Source: Escherichia phage vB_EcoM-ep3
Strand: one strand, 5' to 3'
Length of the DNA: 42,351 nt
Sequence record: NC_025430.1
Part shown: piece by piece, positions 1 to 42,270 of the stretch
How positions within the stretch are numbered: position 1 is the stretch's first letter
Layout of the letters: every line of letters begins with the position of its first letter
Translations under genes and position numbers: made by a program
Notes under the pieces: generated by a model
The model's input: only the letters and a program-made list of their open reading frames with translations
Told to the model about the DNA's origin: nothing
Database searches by the model: none

Positions 1-27
1 AAAAAAAAACCCCGCCATAACGGCGGG
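1..27 (-). terminator. intrinsic terminator downstream of ssb
   Basis: Hairpin CCCGCC-ATAAC-GGCGGG (11-27) preceded on + strand by A9 (1-9), i.e. followed by a U-run on the - strand transcript; lies just 3' of the SSB stop. A near-identical hairpin recurs at 42328-42344. Confidence 0.7.
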
Positions 28-51: not shown

Positions 52-537
52 TTAAAACGGGATGTCATCGTCAAAATCCATCGGCGGTTCGTTCGCTGGT
101 GGTTTCTGTTGGCCGCTGTGGGTTGGCTGCTGCGGCTTACCCCATCCGCCTTGCTGGCCGCCCTGGCTTTGCCCACCGGCCTGGTTATCGTTGGCCGCTG
201 ACAGCATCAACAACCGGCCATTCATGCCCACCACGATTTCAGTTGTGTAGCGATCAACGCCAGCCTGGTCCTGCCACTTGCGCGTTTGCAGCGCGCCTTC
301 AATGAACACCTTGCTGCCTTTGCGCAGGTACTGGCTGGCGATTTCTGCCAGCTTTCCGAAGATGACCACGCGGTGCCATTCCGTTTTTTCTTTCTTCTCC
401 CCTGTCTGCTTATCCTTCCAGGTTTCAGACGTGGCAATTGATAACTGCGCCACGCCGTTGCCGTTCGGCAGCGTGCGGAATTCTGGATCGTTGCCTAAGT
501 TGCCAATGATTTCTACTTTGTTCAGTGAACCGGCCAT
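52..537 (-). CDS. ssb: single-stranded DNA-binding protein
   Basis: 161-aa ORF; SSB-like N-terminal region, Gly/Gln-rich linker ([15 protein letters not shown]) and acidic C-terminal tip DFDDDIPF typical of bacterial and phage SSB. Confidence 0.93.
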
Positions 538-545
538 AATTGCCC

Positions 546-755
546 CTATTTACGTTTTAAGTGTGCGGCGTGGTCGTTGGCACAATCCGCATCGCAATAA
601 ATTTTCTTGCTGCCTTCCGGGAAATCTTCACCACAGTTCAGGCAGTAACCACGCGCAACAGCTTTAACCGCTGGTGCCTTCTGGAGATGCGCGGCAATCA
701 TCGCCGCGCGTTCCTGTTCTTCACGCTCGCAAGCGCGGTCAATATCATCAGCCAT
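546..755 (-). CDS. TraR/DksA-family C4 zinc-finger protein
   Basis: 69 aa; C-terminal CLNCG...CDADC four-cysteine arrangement as in phage TraR-like proteins; tightly packed in the leftward operon. Confidence 0.6.
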
Positions 756-1143
756 GTTCTGCCACCGTGCATTTTGGATGGTGGAAGCCGTCCTGGTGCT
801 GGCACACAGGGCAGCAATCGCGCGGCTGTTCGTTGTCGTTACCAGCTACCGGATGGCGGCCACGTTCCAGCGCGATGACCGCGCCAGCCAGGTAGTTGAT
901 TGCGCCTAACAGTTCCGCCACATCGCGGCCCGCTGGAAGGCGCTGTGATTCCTGCGCTTTCTTCGCTGCCTGGCCGAGTGCGAACCCTGGCCCGTACAGG
1001 TCAATCAGTTTTTGCATGGGCTGCTGGTCAAACGGCTTGTTTACCGCGTGACGTTCGTGGCCTTTGCCACTGGCAGCCTGCGCAAATGCCCGGTCAAGTA
1101 CATCGCGCAGTGATTCATATCCGTTAGCGGGTGGTCGTGTCAT
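748..1143 (-). CDS. hypothetical protein
   Basis: 131-aa ORF in the leftward operon, 8-bp overlap with the downstream gene; Cys/His-rich C-terminus (CCPVCQHQDGFHHPKC); no family recognised by eye. Confidence 0.5.
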   Translation of the reverse strand: MTRPPANGYESLRDVLDRAFAQAASGKGHERHAVNKPFDQQPMQKLIDLYGPGFALGQAAKKAQESQRLPAGRDVAELLGAINYLAGAVIALERGRHPVAGNDNEQPRDCCPVCQHQDGFHHPKCTVAEHG

Positions 1144-1351
1144 TGTCGTTTGCTCCGATCATGTGTTTTGCTTCATACGCTTCCACGCTGGTGATGGAGT
1201 AGCGAACGCGTGAGCCAAATTTTGTATAGGCTGGCCCTTTACCTTTGTTGCGCCAGTTCGCCAGGGTTCCGGTGGTAACTGCGCCATTCCAGCGCAGCAC
1301 CAGTTCCTGTGGCGTCAGATACGTGCTTTGTTTCTGTGCCGGTTGTGCCAT
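1124..1351 (-). CDS. helix-turn-helix DNA-binding protein (AlpA/excisionase-like)
   Basis: 75 aa; segment LTPQELVLRWNGAVTTGTLANWRNKGKGPAY resembles AlpA/Xis-type HTH proteins; overlaps neighbours by 20 and 0 bp. Confidence 0.55.
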   Translation of the reverse strand: MAQPAQKQSTYLTPQELVLRWNGAVTTGTLANWRNKGKGPAYTKFGSRVRYSITSVEAYEAKHMIGANDNDTTTR

Positions 1352-1364
1352 TTTTTACCCTTTC

Positions 1365-2354
1365 TTACTGTGCGCCGGTGCCCATCACCTGGCTGTTTAA
1401 ATCATCAACGTCCTGCGCATCGCCGTTTGCGTTGGCGCGCTGTTCGTCATATGCGCGGGCGGCTTGCAACAATGATTGTTTGAATTCATCGCCCAGCTTT
1501 TTGCGAATTGCTGGTGGGGTTTTGTCCCAGCATTCCTGCGTGTACTGCTCACCCTGTTCGGTAACGCCGCGCAGCTTGTTGCGGTAGGCTTCCACCTTCG
1601 GATCTAACTTGTTGCCACCCTGAACCCACTGACGCAGCGCCAAACCGTCCTGTGCGCTGATGTAGCCAGTTTCACGTCCTAAGATGCCGCGCAATTCTTC
1701 CGGGCACTTCATGACCTGCTGCGCGCTGCCAGAATCCCACATCATCAGGCTGGCGGTCATTTCAAACATCACGTTCTTTTCCGTCACCGGCATGATGCCT
1801 TGCGGTTCATATTCCGTTTTACCGTTGACCTTCACCAGTTTCACTTTTTCACGTGCGCGGATGCAGCAGATGATGTGCATGTTGGATTGCAGCAACGCGT
1901 TCATGAATCGCTTGTGTTCAGCCTTCGCACGGTTCCACTGTGGCTTCATCGGGTTGGCCAGGGTGGCGATTTCTTCGCAGCCGCCTGTTCCTTCCCATTC
2001 GTGCGAAATGCTATCAATCACCAGCACTTCAACGCCTGCCTGTTCAAATTCGCGGATGGCGTCAATGTATCGCTGCGGGCTGAAAGGCGGTTCTAAATCG
2101 CCAATCCAAAACGCGTCCGGGCGTTCTTTCAGTCCAAGTGATTCCTGGATTTTTTCATAAGTGTCATCACTGGCATACAGTGAGCCACGGCGGTTTTCAG
2201 TATCGAGAAAGCCAACCTTTGTGCCGTCACCGTTAGCCAGGCCATATGCCAGCATAAGTGCTGACAGGGTTTTGCCGCTGCCGCTGATACCTGCCAGGCC
2301 GATTACCAGGCGCGCGCCTTCACGTTCTGCCTTACGAATATTAATTACTGCCAT
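1365..2354 (-). CDS. AAA-family ATPase (RecA-fold, Sak4/AAA_24-like)
   Basis: 329 aa; Walker A GLAGISGSGKT, Walker B-like hydrophobic stretch VLVIDSISHEW; sits between exonuclease and SSB as in phage recombination modules. Confidence 0.75.
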   Translation of the reverse strand: MAVINIRKAEREGARLVIGLAGISGSGKTLSALMLAYGLANGDGTKVGFLDTENRRGSLYASDDTYEKIQESLGLKERPDAFWIGDLEPPFSPQRYIDAIREFEQAGVEVLVIDSISHEWEGTGGCEEIATLANPMKPQWNRAKAEHKRFMNALLQSNMHIICCIRAREKVKLVKVNGKTEYEPQGIMPVTEKNVMFEMTASLMMWDSGSAQQVMKCPEELRGILGRETGYISAQDGLALRQWVQGGNKLDPKVEAYRNKLRGVTEQGEQYTQECWDKTPPAIRKKLGDEFKQSLLQAARAYDEQRANANGDAQDVDDLNSQVMGTGAQ

Positions 2355-2381
2355 TGTTTTTAGTCTCTTAGGTGATGAAAA

Positions 2382-3524
2382 TTAAGCCGCACCAACCAGG
2401 TGGGCGTTTTTGTTGGCGTGCCACGCTGGCAGGCTGATGGTCTGGATTTTATCGCCGTATCCAGGCCAAACACCTGTGCGCACGCATTCAGCGTAGACAC
2501 GCAAATCATGCTGGTATTGTGCGCGGCCAATTTCTACGCCTTCGCTATCCAGTACATAAACACCAACTGCGTAAGGCGGTTTTTTCTCAACGGCGATAAA
2601 CGCAAAGTGTTTAGGATAACCACGCCAGAAATCAGGGCGGCAGCGGCACAGAACACCGGTCACCGGATCAGTCCAGTAAACTGATAATTCTGCTTTGCCT
2701 TCGTGCGGAGGCGTGCACTTGCCCTGTTCCAGAGCCAGACGCGTGCCGTCCATGTAGTATGCGTGTTGCACGTCATAGCGCCAGTTGGCGATTGATTTTG
2801 CGAACCCTTCCGGGCTGGCATCTTCGGTGGTTTTCAAGTCACCAATGATGTCTTTGACGTGGTGCAGGATAGCGAACGCTGCCGGATGATTCATTACCGC
2901 GTCACGCATGGCAAAAATTTGTTCAAACGCTTCCGGTGATAGCACTTTGCGTTCGCTGTTATTGCGCTGCCATTCTTCCAGCACATCTGACCACAGTGTG
3001 ACTTCAACGCCGTTGGCGCGCAGCAGGTTGGCCAGCTCATGACGGCTGCCGCTGGTGGATAGTTTGCCAGGACGGTCAATATTCAACTGGTTGATGATTT
3101 CTTTCAGGTCTGGCGCTTTCATCGCGTTAAGCTGTTCAGTAGTCCAGGTTTCAACAGGCTGGTTTTCCAGGATGCGTTCAACCAGTTCGCCTTTGTTGCC
3201 ACCAGTCAGCAGCTTAGGCAGGCGGCCTTCGTTCAGCTTGTTGACCATTTCCACCAGCACTTCACGGTCATCAATAGCATCAGGCACATCAGGACGGCGC
3301 AGCGCCAGGCAATAGGTTTTTGCGAATTCTTCCGGTTCAAGAATTGCCATATGCACAGCCGTGCCGATTTCCTGCGCTGGTGTTGGCGTGCGGTCATTAG
3401 CAGCAGTCACAACAGCGTTGTAGTGCATCGGGCTGCGGTGCACCAAATCCAGGCCAGATTTACTGATGCCTGGTCCGCCGTGGTATTCAGCGTTGGGAAT
3501 ACCTTCGTAAACTCCTGGTTTCAT
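2382..3524 (-). CDS. PD-(D/E)XK-type nuclease (phage exonuclease-like)
   Basis: About 380 aa; N-terminal GIPNAEYHGG...SKSGL motif typical of phage RecB/Cas4-like exonucleases; start moved to ATG at 3524 (MKPGV) with GAGG 8 nt upstream, rather than the longer ORF-track start at 3539. Confidence 0.7.
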   Translation of the reverse strand: MKPGVYEGIPNAEYHGGPGISKSGLDLVHRSPMHYNAVVTAANDRTPTPAQEIGTAVHMAILEPEEFAKTYCLALRRPDVPDAIDDREVLVEMVNKLNEGRLPKLLTGGNKGELVERILENQPVETWTTEQLNAMKAPDLKEIINQLNIDRPGKLSTSGSRHELANLLRANGVEVTLWSDVLEEWQRNNSERKVLSPEAFEQIFAMRDAVMNHPAAFAILHHVKDIIGDLKTTEDASPEGFAKSIANWRYDVQHAYYMDGTRLALEQGKCTPPHEGKAELSVYWTDPVTGVLCRCRPDFWRGYPKHFAFIAVEKKPPYAVGVYVLDSEGVEIGRAQYQHDLRVYAECVRTGVWPGYGDKIQTISLPAWHANKNAHLVGAA

Positions 3525-3575
3525 TATGTTACCTCGCAATTATTATTTAACATGAATTCGGATTAACTGCGGTGA

Positions 3576-3605
3576 ATTATGGCTGACGTGTTGTTATACT
3601 GTCAA
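3576..3605 (-). promoter_or_regulatory. candidate sigma70 promoter of the leftward early operon
   Basis: On the - strand: TTGACA (rc of 3600-3605), 18-nt spacer, CATAAT (rc of 3576-3581); about 45 nt upstream of the exonuclease start. Confidence 0.45.
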
Positions 3606-3662
3606 CTTATTTGTAACTAACATTGTTTAGATCAGCGTCACGCTCGCTAATCAACAAACCTT

Positions 3663-3714
3663 AGCTGTACATCAGCTATGCGTTTTTTGCACATCGCGGC
3701 TTGATTGACGTCAA
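3663..3714. promoter_or_regulatory. palindromes in the divergent intergenic region (candidate operators)
   Basis: AGCTG-N5-CAGCT at 3663-3677 and perfect 10-bp palindrome TTGACGTCAA at 3705-3714, between the two divergent promoters. Confidence 0.35.
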
Positions 3715-3730
3715 TGAACATTACTACTGG

Positions 3731-3760
3731 TTGCAACGTCGCCATGTAGTAACATACAAT
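3731..3760 (+). promoter_or_regulatory. candidate sigma70 promoter of the rightward operon
   Basis: TTGCAA (3731-3736), 18-nt spacer, TACAAT (3755-3760); about 40 nt upstream of the helicase start. Confidence 0.4.
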
Positions 3761-3797
3761 TGCGAATACTTTAAATGATGGCGAATGAACGATAATT

Positions 3798-5216
3798 ATG
3801 GGCGTAATACTTAGGGACTATCAATCCGACATTATCAATAAGGCGCGCCTTTCTATGCGGCGCAACCGCCGCGTGTTATTGCAGGCACCAACAGGCGCGG
3901 GCAAAACTGCGCTGGCGTCATACATGGCTGGGGAAACATCGGCCAAAGGCCAGCAGGTGTGGTTTATTTGCCACCGCGCTGAACTGGTATTACAGACCAG
4001 TTTGACATTCAGGAAGTTCGGCATTGACCACGGCTTTATTGCCGCAGGCTATCCCATGAACCTGCGCGCCGGGGTGCAGGTGTGCAGCATCGACACCCTG
4101 AAAAACCGCCTGCACACCCTGCCAGCTCCTAAGCTGGCCATCATGGACGAAGCGCACCACTGTGGCGCGGCTGGATGGGCGCGCGTCAACGCCTGGCTGT
4201 TCGAGAATGGCGCGTATGTAATCGGCCTGTCAGCCACGCCAAAGCGCCTGGACGGCACCGGCCTGGATGACCACTTTGATGACATCGTGTTGGGGCCATC
4301 GGTGCGCTGGCTGATGGATAACGGCCACCTGTCTGATTATCGCATGTTCTGCCCGGACATCCCTGACATGAAGGGTGTACGCAAACAGATGGGCGATTTC
4401 TCAAAAGGAGAAACCGCCGAGAAGATGGATAAGCCGAAACTAACCGGCAACATCATCAGCCACTGGCTGAAATACGCCAGGGGCATGAAAACGGTTGGCT
4501 TTGCGGTCAACATCGCGCACAGCCGCCACTTAACGCAGGCATTCATTGATTCAGGCATCCGCGCCGCGCACCTGGATGGCGGCACCGATAAGGCGGAACG
4601 CAAGCGCATCATTCAGGACTATGCCAACGACAACCTGGATGTGATTTTCAACGTGTCGCTGTTCGGTGAAGGTTTCGACCTGTCAGCTATCGCACAGACT
4701 GACGTGACGATTGACTGCCTGATTGACGCGCAGCCCACACAATCATTGTCGCTGGTTTTGCAGAAAGATGGCCGCGTGTTGCGACCGTCCAAAGGCAAAA
4801 CCGCCATCATCCTGGACCACGCAGGCAATGCGCTGCGTCATGGCTTCCCTGACGATGAACGGGAATGGTCACTGGCTGGCGATGATAGCGGCAGCAAATC
4901 CAGCAGTGCTGGTGGTCCACCGCCGCCAGTCATCTGCAAAGGCTGTTTCAACGCCATCCGCCGACCACTGCCGCCGAAGTGCCCGCACTGCCAGAAGGAA
5001 CTACAGGCCGAAGCCAAAGAAATTGAAGTGGCAGAAGGAGAACTGCGCGAAATGGACGAACGCGCCAAAGAAAGCCTGCGCGCCAAGATGAGGCGCGAGG
5101 AGGACGCTTGCAAGGATATTGGCGCACTTACTGCCCTGGCGATGAAACGCGGGCTGCCGAACCCATCAGGGTGGGCCATAGCGAAGATGGGTGGAAGAAG
5201 ATTTAAGCGCAAATAG
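3798..5216 (+). CDS. superfamily-2 DNA helicase with C-terminal zinc ribbon
   Basis: 472 aa; motif I LLQAPTGAGKT, motif II AIMDEAHH (DEAH-like), GLSATP motif III, C-terminal CKGCF...CPHCQ zinc ribbon. Confidence 0.85.
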   Translation: MGVILRDYQSDIINKARLSMRRNRRVLLQAPTGAGKTALASYMAGETSAKGQQVWFICHRAELVLQTSLTFRKFGIDHGFIAAGYPMNLRAGVQVCSIDTLKNRLHTLPAPKLAIMDEAHHCGAAGWARVNAWLFENGAYVIGLSATPKRLDGTGLDDHFDDIVLGPSVRWLMDNGHLSDYRMFCPDIPDMKGVRKQMGDFSKGETAEKMDKPKLTGNIISHWLKYARGMKTVGFAVNIAHSRHLTQAFIDSGIRAAHLDGGTDKAERKRIIQDYANDNLDVIFNVSLFGEGFDLSAIAQTDVTIDCLIDAQPTQSLSLVLQKDGRVLRPSKGKTAIILDHAGNALRHGFPDDEREWSLAGDDSGSKSSSAGGPPPPVICKGCFNAIRRPLPPKCPHCQKELQAEAKEIEVAEGELREMDERAKESLRAKMRREEDACKDIGALTALAMKRGLPNPSGWAIAKMGGRRFKRK

Positions 5217-5320
5217 TAGAGTAATTAATAGGTATAACCGATTGGCGATATTTACCAAAGGAAATGTATAGTTATTTCACCGGCACACAGGTGCCCAACA
5301 ACAAAAGAGGAAACACCCAA

Positions 5321-5989
5321 ATGGCACGTTTAACCGCTGCAATCCGTGATGGCATCATTGCCAACGCAATCAAAACCAAAGACTTTGCAGGCCGTGACAT
5401 GGCTATTGTTCAGAAGCGCGCTGATTTTGCTGAACGTCTGCGCAAGTATGCGCTTGCACAATATGGCCTTACTGATGCGCGCCTTATTGAAATTAAAAAG
5501 CAGATTGAAGAACTGCAAAACGAAGTTAAGCACGAAGGAGCAAGGTTCGTTCGAATTACTTTTGACTCAACTAACCGTGCTTGGGATGTGAACCTGGCAG
5601 GACAGGCGCGCAGGCTTTATCTTGATGGTACTTGTTCAGGGGAAAGCGTAAAACCGCTTTATAGTGATTCACGCGTAGAATACAGCGACGATAAAATTAC
5701 TCCACATTTCCATGAATCTGATTTCACAGTGCGCGATCCTAAATGGCGCGAAGAACTGGACGCCATTGACCTGGAAGCGGCGCAACTGCGTGAAGAATAC
5801 AACACGCTTAAATCAACACTGGCAGCGACAATTTCAGGATTCACGACGGTGGAAAAACTTCTGGAAGCCTGGCCAGACGCGAAAGAACTGATTCCAGAAA
5901 CAACGCCGATTGCTAAACATCCAGGAACAGGCATTGCGCTGTCGGTAGCTGAACTTAACGCGCTGTGTGGAATTCCTACCGGAAAATAA
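5321..5989 (+). CDS. hypothetical protein
   Basis: ORF trimmed to ATG 5321 (MARLTAAIRD) with AAGAGG 10 nt upstream; coding-like composition, coiled-coil-like central region; no family recognised. Confidence 0.55.
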   Translation: MARLTAAIRDGIIANAIKTKDFAGRDMAIVQKRADFAERLRKYALAQYGLTDARLIEIKKQIEELQNEVKHEGARFVRITFDSTNRAWDVNLAGQARRLYLDGTCSGESVKPLYSDSRVEYSDDKITPHFHESDFTVRDPKWREELDAIDLEAAQLREEYNTLKSTLAATISGFTTVEKLLEAWPDAKELIPETTPIAKHPGTGIALSVAELNALCGIPTGK

Positions 5990-6425: not shown

Positions 6426-6529
6426 AACTGTTCCTGCGTGGCGTCCTGGCGATGCTGCATGATGAATTATTCTGGCTGCTGGTGGTGCTGGCCGCCTGTG
6501 CTTACCTGGTGGGGGTTATCTATGGCTAA
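6422..6529 (+). CDS. small hydrophobic membrane peptide (35 aa)
   Basis: ATG at 6422 to TAA at 6527-6529, frame checked: MKLFLRGVLAMLHDELFWLLVVLAACAYLVGVIYG; below the ORF-track size cutoff; its stop overlaps the start of the next gene. Confidence 0.35.
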   Translation: MKLFLRGVLAMLHDELFWLLVVLAACAYLVGVIYG

Positions 6530-6932
6530 CAAAGAACACGCGTTGCAGAACGCAATCCGCAACGCACTGGCGGGTCGCTGCCTGCTGTTTCGCGCCAACG
6601 TGGGCAAGGCGTACACCAGCAATGACGTGGTGAAGGTGCCGCGCCAGATGCCGGTTGTGATGGGGCCGCGTGACGTGCTGCTGAAAAACGCCAGGCCGTT
6701 TGACACCGGGCTGCCGCCAGGGTTTTCCGACCTGTTCGGCCTGGTCAGTGTAGAAATCACACCTGACATGGTGGGGCAGAAAGTGGCCATCTTCACCGGC
6801 CTGGAAGTCAAAGACGGTGCCCGCGTGTCACCATTGCAGCGAAACTTCATCAACGCGGTGAACGACAACGGGGGCCGCGCCGGTGTTGTGCGGTCAGTGG
6901 ATGACGCTGAAAAACTGGTGTTCGGAAAATGA
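6522..6932 (+). CDS. VRR-NUC domain nuclease
   Basis: Start trimmed to MANKEHALQNAIRNALAG; conserved-looking GFSDLFG...EVKDGARVSPLQRNFINAV region resembles VRR-NUC (PD-(D/E)XK) proteins. Confidence 0.7.
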   Translation: MANKEHALQNAIRNALAGRCLLFRANVGKAYTSNDVVKVPRQMPVVMGPRDVLLKNARPFDTGLPPGFSDLFGLVSVEITPDMVGQKVAIFTGLEVKDGARVSPLQRNFINAVNDNGGRAGVVRSVDDAEKLVFGK

Positions 6933-7405: not shown

Positions 7406-7626
7406 ACCCGGTAGACTTCATCAAAAAACAAGTCATGGCCGAACTGGTGAAGCAAGGCGCATCACCTGGCACAGCGCAGCACGCGGCTGACTACGCGGCG
7501 CAACAGTACCGCACCACGTCAGCCATCGGCAAAGACCCGTTCGCTGAACTGATACGCCTGGCAGGCGCAATGGCCATGAAGCACCAGGCCGGTTTCCGCT
7601 TCGTGATGCCGCGCGCATCAAAATGA
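7402..7626 (+). CDS. hypothetical protein
   Basis: 74 aa; ATGA overlap with the upstream gene; coding-like composition. Confidence 0.5.
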   Translation: MNPVDFIKKQVMAELVKQGASPGTAQHAADYAAQQYRTTSAIGKDPFAELIRLAGAMAMKHQAGFRFVMPRASK

Positions 7627-7648
7627 CGTAAGATTATTTCAAAAGGTA

Positions 7649-7686
7649 TTTACTTTCGGAAATGCGCCCTGTACTATGGGCGCATT
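7649..7686 (+). promoter_or_regulatory. candidate promoter with overlapping inverted-repeat operator
   Basis: TTTACT (7649-7654), 17-nt spacer, TACTAT (7672-7677); perfect 9-bp inverted repeat AATGCGCCC (7661-7669) / GGGCGCATT (7678-7686) straddles the -10; 20 nt upstream of the HTH gene. Confidence 0.45.
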
Positions 7687-7706
7687 GTTATTACGAGGCT
7701 ATTACT

Positions 7707-7895
7707 ATGGACGAAAGGACCGAACGACTTCACAACATTATGGCTGAACATGGCTTAACCTGCCGCGACGTTGGCCGTTTACTTGGGCGCACTGAACAAA
7801 CGGTGCTTATCTGGCGCTGTAAGGGCGGGAAAGTCATTCCGACCCACCAGCTTGAATTGCTTGAACTGAAACTGAACGCGCAGGCGGAAAAATGA
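7707..7895 (+). CDS. helix-turn-helix transcriptional regulator
   Basis: Trimmed to ATG 7707 (MDERTERL); HTH-like segment LTCRDVGRLLGRTEQTVLIWR; the longer ORF-track start at 7662 lies inside the palindrome. Confidence 0.55.
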   Translation: MDERTERLHNIMAEHGLTCRDVGRLLGRTEQTVLIWRCKGGKVIPTHQLELLELKLNAQAEK

Positions 7896-8134: not shown

Positions 8135-10444
8135 ATGAGTGCACAACAAAACTATAAGGATTTGACCGAACAGGAAATTGCAGAAGCACTTTCCTACATC
8201 GACGCCGGTTGCGACCGTGAAACATGGGTGCGCATGGCGATGGCGGTTAAATCGGAACTAGGCGACGGCGGTTTCACCGTCTGGAATGACTGGTCACGCC
8301 AGTCTGACAAGTACAACAGCAAAGACGCGCGCGACACCTGGAAATCAGTGAAGCGTCACGGCGGCATTGGCATTGGCACCCTGATTGGTGAGGCGCAGCA
8401 GTTCGGCTTTTCCCTGAACGATGCAGAACGCACGCCGCTGACAGCGGAAGAAATCGACGCACGCAAGCGCAAGCGCGAAGCCGAAGAAAAGGCAGAGCAG
8501 CAGCGCCGCGCCGAACGTATGGCGCAGGCAGCCGAACAGGCGCGCAACATATGGGAATCAGCCACCGAACTGGAAGGCGATGAACACCCCTATTTGCAGC
8601 GCAAGCAGGTGCAGGCGTTCGGCCTGCGCGTTGGGCGGTTCTGGACCGAAAAGCGCAGCATTGATGGTGCGCTACTGGTTCCTGTGCGTAACATTGACGG
8701 GCAGATCACCAGCTTGCAGGCCATCTTCCCGAACGAAAACCCACAGCTAGGGCGTGACCGTGATTATTTGCCTGGCGGCCAGAAGCGCGGATGCTTCCAC
8801 GTCATAGGCGGCAAGCCGACTGGCGGAAGCCCGGTTATTGTCATCTGTGAGGGCTATTCAACCGGCGCGTCAATCCACCAGGCAACCGGCTACTGCGTTG
8901 TAGTGGCGTTTGATGCCGGTAACGTTCCGACCGTGGCCAAGTTGATGCGCCAGCAGTTCGGACGCGCAACAATTGTTGTGGCAGCCGATAACGACCAGTG
9001 GCACGAAGATGGCAAGCAAAATGATGGCGTTCACTACGCGCGCCAGGCCGCAACCACATGCGGTGGCCTGCTGGTGGTTCCGAAGTTCGCCGCATTAAGC
9101 GACAAGCCGACCGACTTTAACGACCTGCACAACCTGCAAGGGCTGGCAGAAGTTAAGCGGCAGATTAACGCCGCAATACCTGAACCGGCAAATGACAACT
9201 TTCTGCCGCTGGATGCAACGGTCAACCCGTTCATGTACCCGCACATGAGCCACCAGCAAAAGCCATTAAGCACCTGGGAAAACCTGGAATGGCTGCTGGA
9301 ACAGTACGGCATCACGGCGCGATATAACGAAATCAGCAAAGATGTGGTGGTGACCATTCCAGGGCGTGACTACGGCGTTGACGCTGCGGCCAACTGTTCC
9401 CTGGCGGAAGTTTCCAGCCTGTGTGCCCGCAACGGTATGCCAAAAGGTGATGTGGGCGACTACATCAAGCTGATTGGCGTGGCCAACCGTTACAACCCGG
9501 CTGCTGATTTCATCACGTCACGGCCATGGGATGGCGTCAGCCGCATTTATGACCTGGTTGACACCCTGACCACGCCGGAAGGCTTTGACCGCAGCCTGGT
9601 GCTGATGATGGTGCGCCGCTGGCTGATTTCTGCCGTGGCTGCCGTCATGAAGCCAACCGGGTTCTGGTCCAAAGGCGTCCTGGTGTTACAGGGTGACCAG
9701 TCATTGGGGAAAACGTCCTGGTTTAAAGCACTGCTGCCGCCGACCATGCGCGACCTGGTGAAAGATGGCGCGACCATCGACCCTAGCAACAAAGACAGCG
9801 TGACCACCGCGATTGGCCACTGGATGGTTGAGCTGGGCGAACTAGATGCAACGTTCCGCAAGGCTGACATTGCCAGGCTGAAATCCTTCATCAGTTCTGA
9901 CGTGGACATGCTGCGCCGCCCTTATGACCGGCTTGAATCGAAGTACCAGCGCCGAACGGTGTTTTTTGCGTCAGTGAACCCCAAACACTTCCTGGCCGAT
10001 GACACCGGGAACGTTCGCTGGTGGACCATTCCGGTGACCGGCGTGAACTACGCCCACGACATCGACACGCAACAGTTATGGGCAGAAGTGGCGCAACTGT
10101 ACCGTGACGGCGAACGCTGGTGGCTGGATCGTGATGAAGAAGCCATGCTGGAAGGCGTCAACAAGGAACACGAATCCATTGACCCGGTAGAGGAAATGAT
10201 ACTGGCGCGCTTTGAGTGGGGCAGCGAACGCATCAGCGCCTACCGCGAACATACCGCCAGCCAGGTGTTGCAGGAAATCGGATTTGATAAGCCGAACAAG
10301 TCACAGGCCACGCATTGCAGTAACGTGCTGCGCAAGCTGACCGGGCAGGAACCGCGCAAGACGAAAAACGGGCGGTTCTTCAACCTGCCGCCGAAGGTGT
10401 TGCAGCCGGATTACCGGCGACCAGATGACAATTCACCGTTTTGA
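8135..10444 (+). CDS. DNA primase-helicase (P4 alpha-like)
   Basis: 769 aa; N-terminal primase-like region, TOPRIM-like acidic motifs (VIVICEGYSTG, VVAADNDQ), C-terminal NTPase region with Walker A QGDQSLGKTS; size and domain order match P4 alpha-type primases. Confidence 0.88.
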   Translation: MSAQQNYKDLTEQEIAEALSYIDAGCDRETWVRMAMAVKSELGDGGFTVWNDWSRQSDKYNSKDARDTWKSVKRHGGIGIGTLIGEAQQFGFSLNDAERTPLTAEEIDARKRKREAEEKAEQQRRAERMAQAAEQARNIWESATELEGDEHPYLQRKQVQAFGLRVGRFWTEKRSIDGALLVPVRNIDGQITSLQAIFPNENPQLGRDRDYLPGGQKRGCFHVIGGKPTGGSPVIVICEGYSTGASIHQATGYCVVVAFDAGNVPTVAKLMRQQFGRATIVVAADNDQWHEDGKQNDGVHYARQAATTCGGLLVVPKFAALSDKPTDFNDLHNLQGLAEVKRQINAAIPEPANDNFLPLDATVNPFMYPHMSHQQKPLSTWENLEWLLEQYGITARYNEISKDVVVTIPGRDYGVDAAANCSLAEVSSLCARNGMPKGDVGDYIKLIGVANRYNPAADFITSRPWDGVSRIYDLVDTLTTPEGFDRSLVLMMVRRWLISAVAAVMKPTGFWSKGVLVLQGDQSLGKTSWFKALLPPTMRDLVKDGATIDPSNKDSVTTAIGHWMVELGELDATFRKADIARLKSFISSDVDMLRRPYDRLESKYQRRTVFFASVNPKHFLADDTGNVRWWTIPVTGVNYAHDIDTQQLWAEVAQLYRDGERWWLDRDEEAMLEGVNKEHESIDPVEEMILARFEWGSERISAYREHTASQVLQEIGFDKPNKSQATHCSNVLRKLTGQEPRKTKNGRFFNLPPKVLQPDYRRPDDNSPF

Positions 10445-10567: not shown

Positions 10568-11545
10568 ATGGGTAGCATTGTGAATAAATACGAATTGCAT
10601 TTAGGTGATTGCCTGGAAGTTATGAAGTCTATTCCAGCCGGTAGCGTTGATTTGGTTCTGTGTGATCCGCCGTATGGCACCGCTGGCGGAATGGGAAAGG
10701 GTGAAGAACGCTATTCACGAATTGCGAACGCTGAATGGGATAACGCTATTTCTCCGCAGGCCATTTTTGAAGAATGCAACCGCGTTTTGCGAACTAACGG
10801 CGCTCTTATTCTGTTCAGCCAGGAACCTTACACCAGCAAGTTAATCACAGCGGCGCATGGAAATCTGCCTTTCAGTTATCGACTAATGTGGCTGAAAGAC
10901 CATTTCTCTAACTCGCTGTTGGTAAATAAAGCGCCTGTTTCATACTTTGAAGATTTAGTGGTGTTCTTCAAGAAATATGACACGCTGGCACAGCATCCGC
11001 TAAGGGATTATGCCAAAAAAATCATGGAATACATTGGCAGAAATATAAAGCAGATAAACACTGATTTAGGTCACAGGCGCGCGGAACACTTTTTTTATGT
11101 TGAATCAACGCAGTTCGGGCTGTGTACTGAAAAGACATACAACCAGATTATTGCGCACTATGGGCTTAGTGTGTGTGACTGGCTTATGACTTATGCTGAA
11201 ATGTTAGAAATTGACCGCAGGTTTGCCCGCAGGTTTAACCTGGCGGATGGTGCAAAATACAAATCTAACGTTCTTCAGTACAAAAAGGATTATACCGGCC
11301 TTCACCCAACACAGAAGCCGGTAGCACTGCTGGCTGACATCATCAGGACATATTCAAACCCTGGCGAAACGGTTCTAGATTTCACTATGGGGAGCGGGTC
11401 AACAGGAGTCGCCTGCATCAATGAAGGCCGTAACTTCATAGGAATTGAACTTGATGAAACCTATTTCCAGACAGCGCAGGGGCGCATAATGGAAGCAGCA
11501 GCCGCAAACGATAACCAGGCAAGTAGCAATTCTGTTGTAGCATAA
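10568..11545 (+). CDS. DNA methyltransferase (N6-adenine/N4-cytosine, beta-class)
   Basis: 325 aa; motif IV LCDPPYGT precedes motif I LDFTMGSGSTG (beta-class order); AT-rich relative to neighbours; no cognate restriction enzyme gene nearby. Confidence 0.85.
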   Translation: MGSIVNKYELHLGDCLEVMKSIPAGSVDLVLCDPPYGTAGGMGKGEERYSRIANAEWDNAISPQAIFEECNRVLRTNGALILFSQEPYTSKLITAAHGNLPFSYRLMWLKDHFSNSLLVNKAPVSYFEDLVVFFKKYDTLAQHPLRDYAKKIMEYIGRNIKQINTDLGHRRAEHFFYVESTQFGLCTEKTYNQIIAHYGLSVCDWLMTYAEMLEIDRRFARRFNLADGAKYKSNVLQYKKDYTGLHPTQKPVALLADIIRTYSNPGETVLDFTMGSGSTGVACINEGRNFIGIELDETYFQTAQGRIMEAAAANDNQASSNSVVA

Positions 11546-39364: not shown

Positions 39365-40240
39365 ATGGCTACTATCGGGCAACTGTATAAATCAAAACAA
39401 ACCGCAGCAACGCCGCGCAAGGTGTTTTGGGTGCCGCTGGCTGAACTGTATGTGGAAGATGGCTACAACATCCGCGACGTGGACCAGGCGCACGTTGAAG
39501 AATTCCGCGATGCGTACCTGGCCGGTGAATATGTGCCGCCGCTGACCGTGGAAGTGACGCAGCAGGGCATCAAGGTGATTGATGGCCACCACCGCTTTGC
39601 CGGTGCAAAGATGGCCGCAGAAACCGGCCTGGAACTGCGCCTGGAAGTGAACGACATCACCGGCACCAGTGAGGCTGACAAAATCGCGCTGATGGTCACC
39701 AGCAGCCAGGGCAAGCCGCTGGAACCGCTGGAACGCGCCAAAGCCTATTCGCGCCTGAAAGCGCAGGGCTGGACCAATGACGAGATAGCCAAGAAGGTGA
39801 AGCGCAGCCCGTCAGACGTGGCCAACATGCTGGCCCTGGCTGAATGCCCGGAACCCATCAAAGACATGGTGCGCGGTGGCCAGATGTCCTACGTGACCGC
39901 CACCGAACTGACCCGCCAGCACGGCACCGAAGCCGAAGCCGTGGCCGCACAGGCGCTGGAAGAAGCCAAAGCCGCTGGCAAGGATAAAGTAACAAAGAAA
40001 TTCACCGAACCGAAGGCACCAAAAGCGCCGAAGGCCAAGCCGGAAGCAATCCAGCCACCGTTCGGCAAAGACAAGCTGACGCGCCTGGCTGACCTGGCCG
40101 TGCAAATCGAACTGGTCCACAGCGATGAACGCCTGGAAGATGCCGAGCCTGACGAATCCATGACCCTGCGCGCACCTGCTGGCGTGGTGCGTGAATTCAT
40201 GGCGCTGGTGGCTGACTACGTGGGCGGGGTGCCGGAATGA
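39365..40240 (+). CDS. ParB-like nuclease-domain protein
   Basis: 291 aa; N-terminal ParB/Srx-type motif (KVIDGHHRF) plus HTH-like segment (GWTNDEIAKKVKRSPSDVANMLAL); Lys/Ala/Pro-rich linker; no parA nearby. Confidence 0.7.
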   Translation: MATIGQLYKSKQTAATPRKVFWVPLAELYVEDGYNIRDVDQAHVEEFRDAYLAGEYVPPLTVEVTQQGIKVIDGHHRFAGAKMAAETGLELRLEVNDITGTSEADKIALMVTSSQGKPLEPLERAKAYSRLKAQGWTNDEIAKKVKRSPSDVANMLALAECPEPIKDMVRGGQMSYVTATELTRQHGTEAEAVAAQALEEAKAAGKDKVTKKFTEPKAPKAPKAKPEAIQPPFGKDKLTRLADLAVQIELVHSDERLEDAEPDESMTLRAPAGVVREFMALVADYVGGVPE

Positions 40241-41030: not shown

Positions 41031-41571
41031 TAACATACAGCTTATACTACCTGCCGCAGACGCGCGAGGCGATGAATAAATGGGAAATATTGTTGCGAAA
41101 TGCACTTGCGTGATATAGGATTAAATTGTCAGTTGTAGAGATTCACGCTGTCGAGAGATACACGATGACCGCCGTGAAAGGACGGCACACAACAGGTAAG
41201 AGCATTGAACCCGTAGACCTCGCGGATTTGGTGAAAGGTGCCGCGCATTGCTCTTTCCGTTGTGGTGAATGCGCAGGCTGATGCGCGACCAATGTATAAA
41301 CAGCGCTCATGGCAAGCAGTAACCAATCTGCGCCTCAAGACAGCGTCACTGGTAGTGCGGGCGCTCTAACCAGTAAGCCGGAGTTCAGCACCGGCCACCA
41401 CAACACGCGCCGTGATGCGCTTTTGCGAACACTTCCAACCACCAGGGTGTTACCTCGCAACGTGAAAGCGCATCGCAGTGCGACATTCGCACAGACTGGA
41501 ACTTACCAGACTAGTGATTCCAATAAGGCAGGTGATCTGTATCTCGCATCACAGCGTCACGTGACACAAAA

Positions 41572-41592
41572 CCCCGCTTAGGCGGGGTTTTT
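41572..41592. terminator. bidirectional intrinsic terminator
   Basis: CCCCGC-TTAG-GCGGGG hairpin flanked by ACAAAA upstream and TTTTTCTTT downstream; lies just 3' of the - strand SprT-like gene and at the end of the + strand ORF-poor region. Confidence 0.75.
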
Positions 41593-41598
41593 CTTTGG

Positions 41599-42270
41599 TC
41601 ATTCGTCATCGCCTTCCGGAGTCATCGCGCCATGTTCCGGGCAGTGAGGCGGCCCGACCTCCAACCATTTTTGCGTTACCCGAACCGTGTAGCCGCATTC
41701 CTGGCATTCGCATTTTTTCAGCCTGGTGGTTTGCTTAGGCTTCGCCGTGGACGCACCGCCGACCGGTGCCACTTCGATTTCCTCCCCTTCATCATCGTCA
41801 CCGCCTTCATCCAGGCCGATGCGCAGGCGTGGCACTTTTATGGATATGCCACGGTCAAACGTCAGCTTGGCGTGCGGCATGGGGCCAAGTTCGTCCAGGA
41901 ACGGTTTGACGTACTCTTTGAATTTCTCGCCAGGCGTGGTGGCGGTCATCGGTCCATTCAGGCCAACAGCCTTGCACACAGTGGCAAACGCGCCCTTGTG
42001 GCCACAGTCAAAACCAACGGTGGCGTGCGTCAGTTCGTGCCACAGGTGGTTTGCGACCAGGTACGGTTCCACCTGGTCTGGCATGATGAATATTTCAAAG
42101 GTGTTGTCTGCACTGCACTTGCTGTGCCAGCACTGTGCCGCCGTACTGGACCGCGCGCCGCTGCTGCAAAAGCCAACTGACACCCGGAATTTTGGCATTT
42201 CATAGCCGAATTCTTTAAAACGCGGCGCAAACTTCGCCGCCAAAGCATTTAACCAACCTTCACGGTCCAT
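41599..42270 (-). CDS. SprT-like zinc metalloprotease with C-terminal zinc ribbon
   Basis: 223 aa; HExxH motif (WHELTHA) after a basic N-terminal region, acidic linker, C-terminal CECQECG...HCPEHG zinc ribbon; GAGG RBS and a perfect TATAAT (rc of 42306-42311) upstream on the - strand. Confidence 0.55.
   Translation of the reverse strand: MDREGWLNALAAKFAPRFKEFGYEMPKFRVSVGFCSSGARSSTAAQCWHSKCSADNTFEIFIMPDQVEPYLVANHLWHELTHATVGFDCGHKGAFATVCKAVGLNGPMTATTPGEKFKEYVKPFLDELGPMPHAKLTFDRGISIKVPRLRIGLDEGGDDDEGEEIEVAPVGGASTAKPKQTTRLKKCECQECGYTVRVTQKWLEVGPPHCPEHGAMTPEGDDE

Follow-up and report, generated by a model that had tools for sequence, protein, structure and literature searches.

A probable recombination cassette of a segment-swapped RecE-family exonuclease and a long Sak4-like ATPase in the leftward operon of Escherichia phage vB_EcoM-ep3

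Six minus-strand genes of Escherichia phage vB_EcoM-ep3 (NC_025430.1; the 42,351 nucleotides analysed are called the window below) encode, in the order of transcription, a predicted RecE-family exonuclease, a RecA-fold ATPase of Pfam family AAA_24, a helix-turn-helix (HTH) protein, a 131-aa protein, a TraR-like protein and a single-stranded DNA-binding protein (SSB). As judged from the sequence, these genes probably form the leftward early operon of a Jilinvirus myophage that was formerly temperate, with a recombination cassette as its core. Two features are out of the ordinary, namely that the long Sak4-like ATPase has a conserved exonuclease partner and that the RecE-type nuclease core contains a conserved segment swap; the module is otherwise as expected for an early region in a phage that was once temperate. 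A preliminary description of the sequence had read the genes as a recombination set. Conserved synteny supported this reading, in which annealing activity is a predicted property, and the profile searches it had proposed as a check upheld every family call, so that the proteins did not fall into unrelated families. Phage pairs of an exonuclease and an annealase are the basis of recombineering, and Sak4-type systems are the least understood of them.

The closest relatives of the first 6 kb of the window were Escherichia phages vB_EcoM_ECOO78 (97% identity) and vB_EcoM_ECO1230-10 (92%), referred to as ECOO78 and ECO1230-10; relatives of lower identity included HeidiAbel (Bas97), Salmonella phage PT1, Klebsiella phage KA2-1 and Enterobacter phage Arya. 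The window phage and its close relatives belong to Jilinvirus of the subfamily Iiscvirinae, small myoviruses of 41-44 kb. The gene order exonuclease, ATPase, HTH, 131-aa, TraR-like and SSB was kept in Jilinvirus, Harrisonburgvirus, Micavirus and KA2-1, the order-keeping phages including Pseudomonas phage Persinger and Burkholderia phage Mica, and the same order without the 131-aa gene was found in Xanthomonas phage FoX3 (Foxunavirus). More distant relatives were sampled in seven metagenomic contigs, whose ATPases were 35-43% identical to that of the window. A RecE-like gene lay immediately upstream of the ATPase gene in six of the seven, often overlapping its start, and one of these six carried an SSB gene two genes downstream of the ATPase gene. 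The fact that a RecE-like gene directly precedes the ATPase gene in six of seven distant contigs makes a recombination cassette the best reading, and no other argument for joint action of nuclease and ATPase, like that of RecE/RecT and Exo/Bet, is as strong as this recurrence. The long Sak4-like ATPase is thus repeatedly coupled to a RecE-type exonuclease and an SSB across proteobacterial phages with ATPase identities as low as 35-40%, which gives a testable cassette with a candidate adaptor domain.

The preliminary description had placed a compact leftward six-gene module at 52-3524, and all six open reading frames (ORFs) were confirmed there (Table 1). The spacing along the operon was 27, 13, -20, -8 and 8 nt (negative values are overlaps), so that the operon is compact. 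The strong TTGACA-18-CATAAT promoter described earlier also stood, with 11 of 12 consensus positions. It was the top-scoring of six promoter-like sites in 5.4 kb (chance expectation 4.0), and its -35 sequence TTGACAG was invariant in an alignment of six phages (window, ECOO78, ECO1230-10, KA2-1, HeidiAbel and PT1). In PT1 and HeidiAbel the operon promoter sits in the short gap between the cI and exonuclease genes. A feature that the earlier description did not contain is a strong intrinsic terminator 24 nt past the SSB stop. The conserved promoter and the intrinsic terminator delimit the transcription unit at both ends. Within the divergent intergenic region, an inverted repeat, TAGCTGATGTACAGCTA, was observed at 3662-3678; the leftward promoter lies on one side of it and a weaker rightward promoter-like site (3731-3760) on the other. 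The sequence around it is conserved in ECOO78, ECO1230-10 and KA2-1, and it may be an operator or a bidirectional hairpin.

Profile searches matched the product of the first gene to PF12684/DUF3799 and to phrog_412 ('exonuclease VIII'), and a phmmer comparison with the solved nuclease domain of E. coli RecE (3H4R) gave E=8.6e-25, which bore out the earlier call of a PD-(D/E)XK exonuclease. An AlphaFold2 (AF2) model made with 45 homologues as input had a mean predicted local distance difference test score (pLDDT) of 87.6. The PD-(D/E)XK catalytic set was present as D298 (in RCRPD), D229-L-K231 and Q253..Y257, all invariant in the 45 homologues. By its similarity in sequence and predicted fold to the RecE nuclease domain, the protein is assigned to the RecE family (DUF3799) as a PD-(D/E)XK exonuclease with predicted 5'-3' activity. 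The element order that is canonical in this family, in which a hairpin with an Asp precedes the (D/E)xK strand, was not found in the window exonuclease.

The ATPase passed the Pfam PF13479/AAA_24 model with 43.3 bits (gathering threshold, GA, 27), and the Sak4 of HK620, a biochemically characterised annealase, scored 30 bits on the same model. PF13479 has been equated with Sak4 in the literature (PMC8093625). The family comprised 6880 cluster representatives at E<=1e-3 and 282 at E<=1e-30, and its matches usually covered residues 1 to about 310. Conserved positions were G27/K28 of Walker A, D51-T-E53, R56, D114 of Walker B, H118 and R166, which include two signatures of the RecA superfamily, E53 as the Glu that follows strand 2 and R166 as the Arg of the C-terminal beta-hairpin. 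Together with Walker A and B and the RAD51/RecA-like fold predicted in the AF2 model (pLDDT 95.2; predicted template modelling score, pTM, 0.88), all elements of the Sak4 fold were found, that is, a RecA/Rad51 fold, both Walker motifs, the catalytic Glu and the hairpin Arg. In a profile search of the PDB, RecA was matched and aligned from Walker A to Walker B, and among predicted viral structures the matches were phage proteins labelled 'AAA domain', 'AAA-ATPase' and 'RecA-like DNA recombinase'. Profile matches and model place the protein as a predicted RecA/Rad51-fold ATPase of Pfam AAA_24, the Sak4 family in the broad sense. Its core spans residues 1-233 and is followed by a helical C-terminal domain of about 95 aa (residues 234-323), conserved in the subfamily, and by an acidic tail.

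Several observations weigh against the cassette as described. Lopes et al. (2010) limited Sak4 to proteins of fewer than 290 residues without extra domains, and the window ATPase, with 329 aa and an additional domain, fails this rule; the Sak4-like call of the preliminary description held for the Pfam family and the predicted fold and did not hold for the core-only architecture. With its length and its conserved C-terminal helical domain, the protein is not a textbook Sak4, which is a core-only RecA annealase (Lopes 2010; Hutinet 2018). PHROGs places it in phrog_1366, a family of unknown function. When it was compared with HK620 Sak4 by BLASTP, only Walker A was matched, and hhalign of a profile built from 68 ATPase sequences against the single HK620 Sak4 sequence gave a probability of 6%, which is not significant. 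Three unrelated small genes separate the ATPase and SSB genes, and the seventh distant contig encodes an SMC_N/AAA_23 protein downstream of the ATPase instead of a RecE-like gene. The HK620 comparison says little either way and is not a negative result, since the Pfam model in question accepts both proteins.

It has been proposed that some single-strand annealing proteins carry a Red-beta-like C-terminal adaptor domain (PMC8093625). Such an identity for the C-terminal domain of the window ATPase found no support, as hhalign against lambda Bet gave a probability of 0.2%, and a profile search of the PDB with this domain returned nothing below E=0.17.

The ATPase could instead be a strand-exchange or filament-forming recombinase or a Rad51-paralogue-like mediator, which would act by strand invasion and stand nearer to UvsX/RecA than to Sak4/RecT. 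It speaks for this that solved Sak4 itself forms Rad51-like filaments, and that the C-terminal domain could be a secondary DNA-binding site, the absence of which has been used to explain why core-only Sak4 performs no strand exchange. We consider it unlikely, however, since neither the RecA C-terminal domain nor any solved structure showed detectable similarity to the C-terminal domain, the family of the protein is AAA_24 and not PF00154 RecA, and annealase systems are classically built with a RecE-type exonuclease as partner. Even less probable is a replicative helicase or helicase loader in an operon that would be a replication module. GenBank labels the protein 'putative replicative DNA helicase' in ECO1230-10, ECOO78, KA2-1, FoX3 and PPpW-3, and an SSB is encoded in the same operon, but public labels for this one ATPase contradict one another ('replicative DNA helicase', 'RecT' in PT1, 'RecA-like recombinase' in Mica, and 'hypothetical'). 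The protein lacks the N-terminal and linker domains of DnaB, and its gene is tightly and repeatedly coupled to that of a RecE-like exonuclease. With a separate PriCT_2 + Toprim + VapE primase-helicase, and an SF2 helicase besides, in its gene set, the phage does not require the ATPase as a replicative helicase. A true RecT in the PT1 slot was rejected; the PT1 protein is the same ATPase, 97% identical and truncated at the N terminus by annotation. The labels 'replicative DNA helicase' and 'RecT' in the public records, both applied to one ATPase, are corrected accordingly.

The SSB of the preliminary description was confirmed by PF00436 (132 bits) and TIGR00621 (181.6 bits; cut-off 53.95), and the protein has an OB-fold domain and, at its end, the acidic tip DFDDDIPF. 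For Sak4 of HK620 to be stimulated, the final six residues of the cognate SSB are essential. According to published surveys, sak4 adjoins ssb in up to 80% of cases and also occurs near ResIII/Helicase_C helicases; in the window the SSB gene is in the same operon as the ATPase gene, three genes downstream, and a ResIII/Helicase_C helicase gene is the divergent neighbour. The Sak4 and SSB module of HK620 (also found in PA73, phi31 and S. aureus 52A) resembles that of the window in several respects. Both ATPases are of Pfam family PF13479 and have a RecA/Rad51 core with the two Walker motifs, the catalytic Glu and the Arg of the C-terminal hairpin; in both, the leftward early operon that encodes the ATPase also includes ssb, the SSB has an acidic tip, and a ResIII/Helicase_C helicase is encoded nearby. 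The modules differ in that the window ATPase has the additional helical domain and lies three genes from ssb, and shares no pairwise sequence similarity with HK620 Sak4 beyond Walker A. The window SSB is of the canonical PF00436 type whereas that of HK620 is of the DUF669 type, and the window has its own RecE-type exonuclease whereas Abc2 of HK620 hijacks RecBCD. With RecE/RecT of the E. coli Rac prophage and lambda Exo/Bet, the window operon has in common the adjacent genes for an exonuclease and a pairing protein in an early leftward operon. Here the partner is a RecA-fold ATPase and not a Rad52-like RecT or Red-beta, and the window nuclease, unlike RecE, lacks the long N-terminal region, carries SAP-like repeats and has core blocks A and B swapped.

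We infer the biochemical activities of the operon proteins and their physical coupling as follows. The RecE-type exonuclease would resect the 5' strand at double-strand ends, for example at genome termini or broken replication forks, and the phage SSB would coat the exposed 3' single strand. The AAA_24 ATPase would then be recruited, probably through the acidic tip of the SSB and/or its own C-terminal helical domain, and would pair the strand with complementary DNA in an ATP-dependent manner, as Sak4 does. The outcome would be genome circularisation, recombination-dependent replication and repair. The TraR-like protein would most likely bind the secondary channel of the host RNA polymerase and reprogram host transcription, as lambda Orf73 does; the HTH protein would be an excisionase-type regulator left from the temperate ancestor, and the 131-aa protein a conserved factor alongside rather than a recombination enzyme.

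The segment swap in the nuclease core is a feature that the preliminary description did not contain. The core considered here is a beta1-beta2-beta3 meander followed by a helix crossover to beta4. In the canonical order, a hairpin ending in R-x-R-P-D, with the first catalytic Asp, is followed by the strand D-L-K-T and the helix Y-x-x-Q-x-x-x-Y. RecE follows this order, as do the orthologues of PT1, HeidiAbel, Persinger, Mica, FoX3 and KA2-1. The reverse arrangement was observed in the window, ECOO78 and ECO1230-10, and the window has DLKT from residue 229 and RCRPD from residue 294. The phmmer alignment with 3H4R was accordingly non-collinear, residues 262-298 of the query matching RecE 111-147 and residues 227-262 matching RecE 156-189. 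Compared with the Persinger protein by BLASTP, a block of about 30 residues (AELSVYW.DP.TGVLCRCRPD.WR) was lost at one site and inserted about 40 residues downstream.

Among the 120 closest protein clusters (identity down to 65%), 104 had the swapped order, and D229, K231, Q253, Y257, E279 and D298 were invariant among the 45 swapped homologues. Between the window and ECO1230-10, dN/dS was 0.22 over the whole exonuclease gene, with 0.06 in the rearranged region and 0.076 in block A, the one that moved. The wide occurrence of the swap, the invariant motif residues and the low dN/dS indicate that the swap is not an assembly artefact and that the gene is not dying; the rearranged nuclease is under purifying selection. 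It is predicted to retain the RecE fold, and to go by the conserved residues and the model it looks still functional. The weakest alternative, an inactivated relic with a destroyed PD-(D/E)XK site that would leave the module without a nuclease of its own, draws on the reversed order of the catalytic segments relative to RecE and all other isolated relatives and on the lower modelling confidence of linker residues 271-280 (pLDDT 78), but is most improbable in view of the shared order in the 104 clusters, the six invariant residues and the low dN/dS in the swapped region.

The swap would be topologically cheap, since beta1, beta3 and beta4 all start, and beta2 ends, on one edge of the sheet, and with the four connection points on the same edge, new linkers of 18 and 8 residues can rejoin the core. 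A leftover stretch, LALEQGKCTPPHEGKAE, aligns with the RecE segment that precedes beta1. This alignment suggests an internal tandem duplication as the origin of the swap, after which the first hairpin and the second beta3-helix unit were lost. A 2012 survey of the PD-(D/E)XK superfamily mentioned circular permutation of the first helix in Hef, and listed RecE/DUF3799 with no permutation noted. Permutations of the Hef type resemble the present case in that the order of core elements is rearranged while fold and active-site residues are kept. In Hef, the first core helix is supplied by the C terminus; in the window nuclease the exchange appears to involve two neighbouring segments inside the chain, the beta1-beta2 hairpin and the beta3-helix unit, and the termini are not permuted. 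The new feature is thus, from the alignments, a conserved non-circular segment swap in the RecE nuclease core. It amounts to a natural experiment in protein topology, as canonical and swapped forms occur in sister phages of one genus and are directly comparable.

Two claims can be joined, and we do so tentatively, with slightly more doubt than confidence: that the swapped Jilinvirus nuclease is fully active, its hairpin having moved past the beta3-helix unit, probably by internal duplication and then two deletions, and that such a nuclease is one component, and the long AAA_24 ATPase the other, of a widespread and as yet uncharacterised recombination system in which the C-terminal domain of the ATPase is a dedicated adaptor. 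If this is true, the nuclease and ATPase could be a new tool for recombineering.

The exonuclease also contains two SAP-like repeats, predicted from PF02037 and from the model, in which their helices are 87-98/111-121 and 137-148/161-170. The SAP-like helix-extended-helix is a DNA-binding motif. The PF02037 score was 20.8 bits for the window, below the GA of 23.9, and 27.6 bits for the PT1 orthologue, and the number of repeats varied, with two in the window and three each in PT1 and KA2-1. Relative to ECO1230-10, dS was 0.78 in the SAP-repeat region (3000-3272; residues 96-196) and 0.1-0.2 in the remaining exonuclease gene. This difference suggests mosaic exchange within the gene in the SAP-repeat region.

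The small genes between the ATPase and SSB genes probably serve other ends. The HTH protein matched PF12728 HTH_17 with 25.7 bits, just under the GA of 27, and phrog_66 ('excisionase and transcriptional regulator') with E=3.8e-5. The HTH assignment of the preliminary description was thus retained, and by these borderline matches the protein is a predicted winged HTH of the excisionase/MerR type. Its orthologues occupy the same slot in five genera. In a phage that has lost the integrase, it is most likely either a regulator or a relic.

For the TraR-like protein, described earlier as a TraR-like zinc finger, the match to phrog_54 (E=1.8e-15) and a DxxDxA motif at residues 3-8 (D3-D-I-D6-R-A8) agreed with that description; the motif has the same spacing in Persinger, Mica, FoX3 and KA2-1, phages of four other genera. 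DxxDxA reaches the active site of RNA polymerase and is needed for the function of TraR and lambda Orf73 (PMC9239242). The protein shares with F-plasmid TraR and with Orf73, encoded in the exo-xis region of lambda, a length of about 70 aa, the position of DxxDxA and a central Cys4 cluster. Its zinc site is CLNC-12-CDADC (CxxC-12-CxxxC), whereas that of TraR is CxxC-17-CxxC, and its TIGR02419 score of 27.9 bits is below the cut-off of 59.7. It had no Pfam hit, and a sequence search of the PDB gave no match, solved TraR included; its gene is naturally deleted in ECO1230-10. From motif and analogy it is most likely a regulator of the RNA polymerase secondary channel, and together with the HTH protein it is most likely an early transcription regulator and not a recombination factor. 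A TraR-like gene in this setting is normal, since lambda orf73 also lies beside phage recombination genes. In Mica (NC_054148) the TraR-like gene at 7548-7766 is annotated 'putative DNA-directed RNA polymerase subunit alpha' on the basis of an HHpred hit to PDB 6PST chain N. We take 6PST to be a TraR-RNA polymerase complex, and the label was probably derived from the entry name and not from the chain name.

The 131-aa protein matched phrog_13898 (E=3e-60; function unknown) and had 915 homologues, none with a Pfam domain. It had been called Cys/His-rich, which was correct for its last 20 or so residues (CCPVCQHQDGFHHPKC), a variable CCHC-type knuckle at 769..816, and incorrect for the conserved part, an N-terminal helical domain of about 95 aa (GKGxERH, GQAxKKxxE). 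The protein also has an NDN motif. No relative was found in the PDB (single-sequence and profile searches), in Pfam at E up to 10, in NCBIfam, or in Pfam searches with all 40 aligned members. Comparison of its CPVC with the Rad50 zinc-hook motif gave only weak, non-significant matches in 13 of the 40 members (best E=0.079). The gene was single-copy in the window by local tblastn. In ECO1230-10, Orf55 (519-860) joins, in frame, the N-terminal domain of this protein as far as NDNE to the C-terminal eight residues of the TraR-like protein, so that the zinc knuckle and nearly all of the TraR-like protein are missing. This natural deletion indicates that the knuckle and the TraR-like protein are dispensable for a viable phage. 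HeidiAbel (PQ850606, 3540-4400) and PT1 (MT012302, 2530-3120) carry an intact 131-aa homologue in a frame other than the annotated one. The annotated 98-aa ORF and the N-terminal extensions on DksA-like ORFs in these records are wrong-frame artefacts, and the annotation of the 131-aa gene is corrected here for the two GenBank records.

Table 1. Features located in the window.
Feature	Coordinates	Strand	Remarks
Exonuclease, 380 aa	3524..2382	-	ATG start; alternative upstream TTG at 3539 possible
SAP-like helix-extended-helix repeats (two) in exonuclease	3000..3272	-	residues about 85-175; PF02037 and model
Block B of nuclease core: (D/E)xK strand D229-L-K231 and helix Y250-D-V-Q253..Y257	2739..2855	-	invariant in 45 permuted homologues
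Block A of nuclease core, relocated: linker and beta-hairpin AELSVYWTDPVTGVLCRCRPD, catalytic D298	2610..2738	-	after block B, not before
ATPase, 329 aa	2354..1365	-	
HTH protein, 75 aa	1351..1124	-	
131-aa protein	1143..748	-	
TraR-like protein, 69 aa	755..546	-	
SSB, 161 aa	537..52	-	
Sigma-70-type promoter TTGACA-18-CATAAT of leftward operon	3605..3576	-	11/12 consensus positions
Intrinsic terminator CCCGCCGTTATGGCGGG then T-run	stem 27..11, T-run to position 1	-	7-bp GC stem
SF2 helicase (ResIII/Helicase_C)	3798..5216		divergent neighbour of leftward operon
VRR-NUC nuclease	6438-6932	+	labelled Holliday junction resolvase in relatives
Primase-helicase PriCT_2 + Toprim + VapE-like	8135..10444	+	
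N6/N4 DNA methylase	10568-11545	+	
ParB-like protein	39365-40240	+	

The lifestyle of Jilinvirus has been described as facultatively temperate. The integrase, as well as the cI-like repressor, is missing from some members, and the window phage is among these reduced forms. No cI homologue was found when one was looked for in the window, and the integrase remnant consists of the last 21 codons only (41048..41110). PT1 and HeidiAbel carry a gene for a cI-like S24 repressor between the exonuclease gene and the divergent helicase gene, which is absent from the window at 3540-3797. The window phage is a reduced derivative of a temperate lineage and is probably obligately lytic. No DNA polymerase was seen among the window ORFs examined, and Rfam and tRNA scans of the entire window found no RNA family and no tRNA.

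Directly downstream of the SF2 helicase gene, a 241-aa protein (5264-5989, plus strand) matched Nmad5 ('nucleotide modification associated domain 5') with E=2e-36. Sensitivity to restriction systems has been reported for HeidiAbel. At its far end (41403-42270, minus strand) the window carries homologues of HeidiAbel Bas97_0032 and 0031; that of Bas97_0032 belongs to phrog_6361, and its equivalents by position bear the label SprT-like in Mica and KA2-1. As these genes come after the SSB terminator on the circular map, leftward transcription may reach them by read-through.

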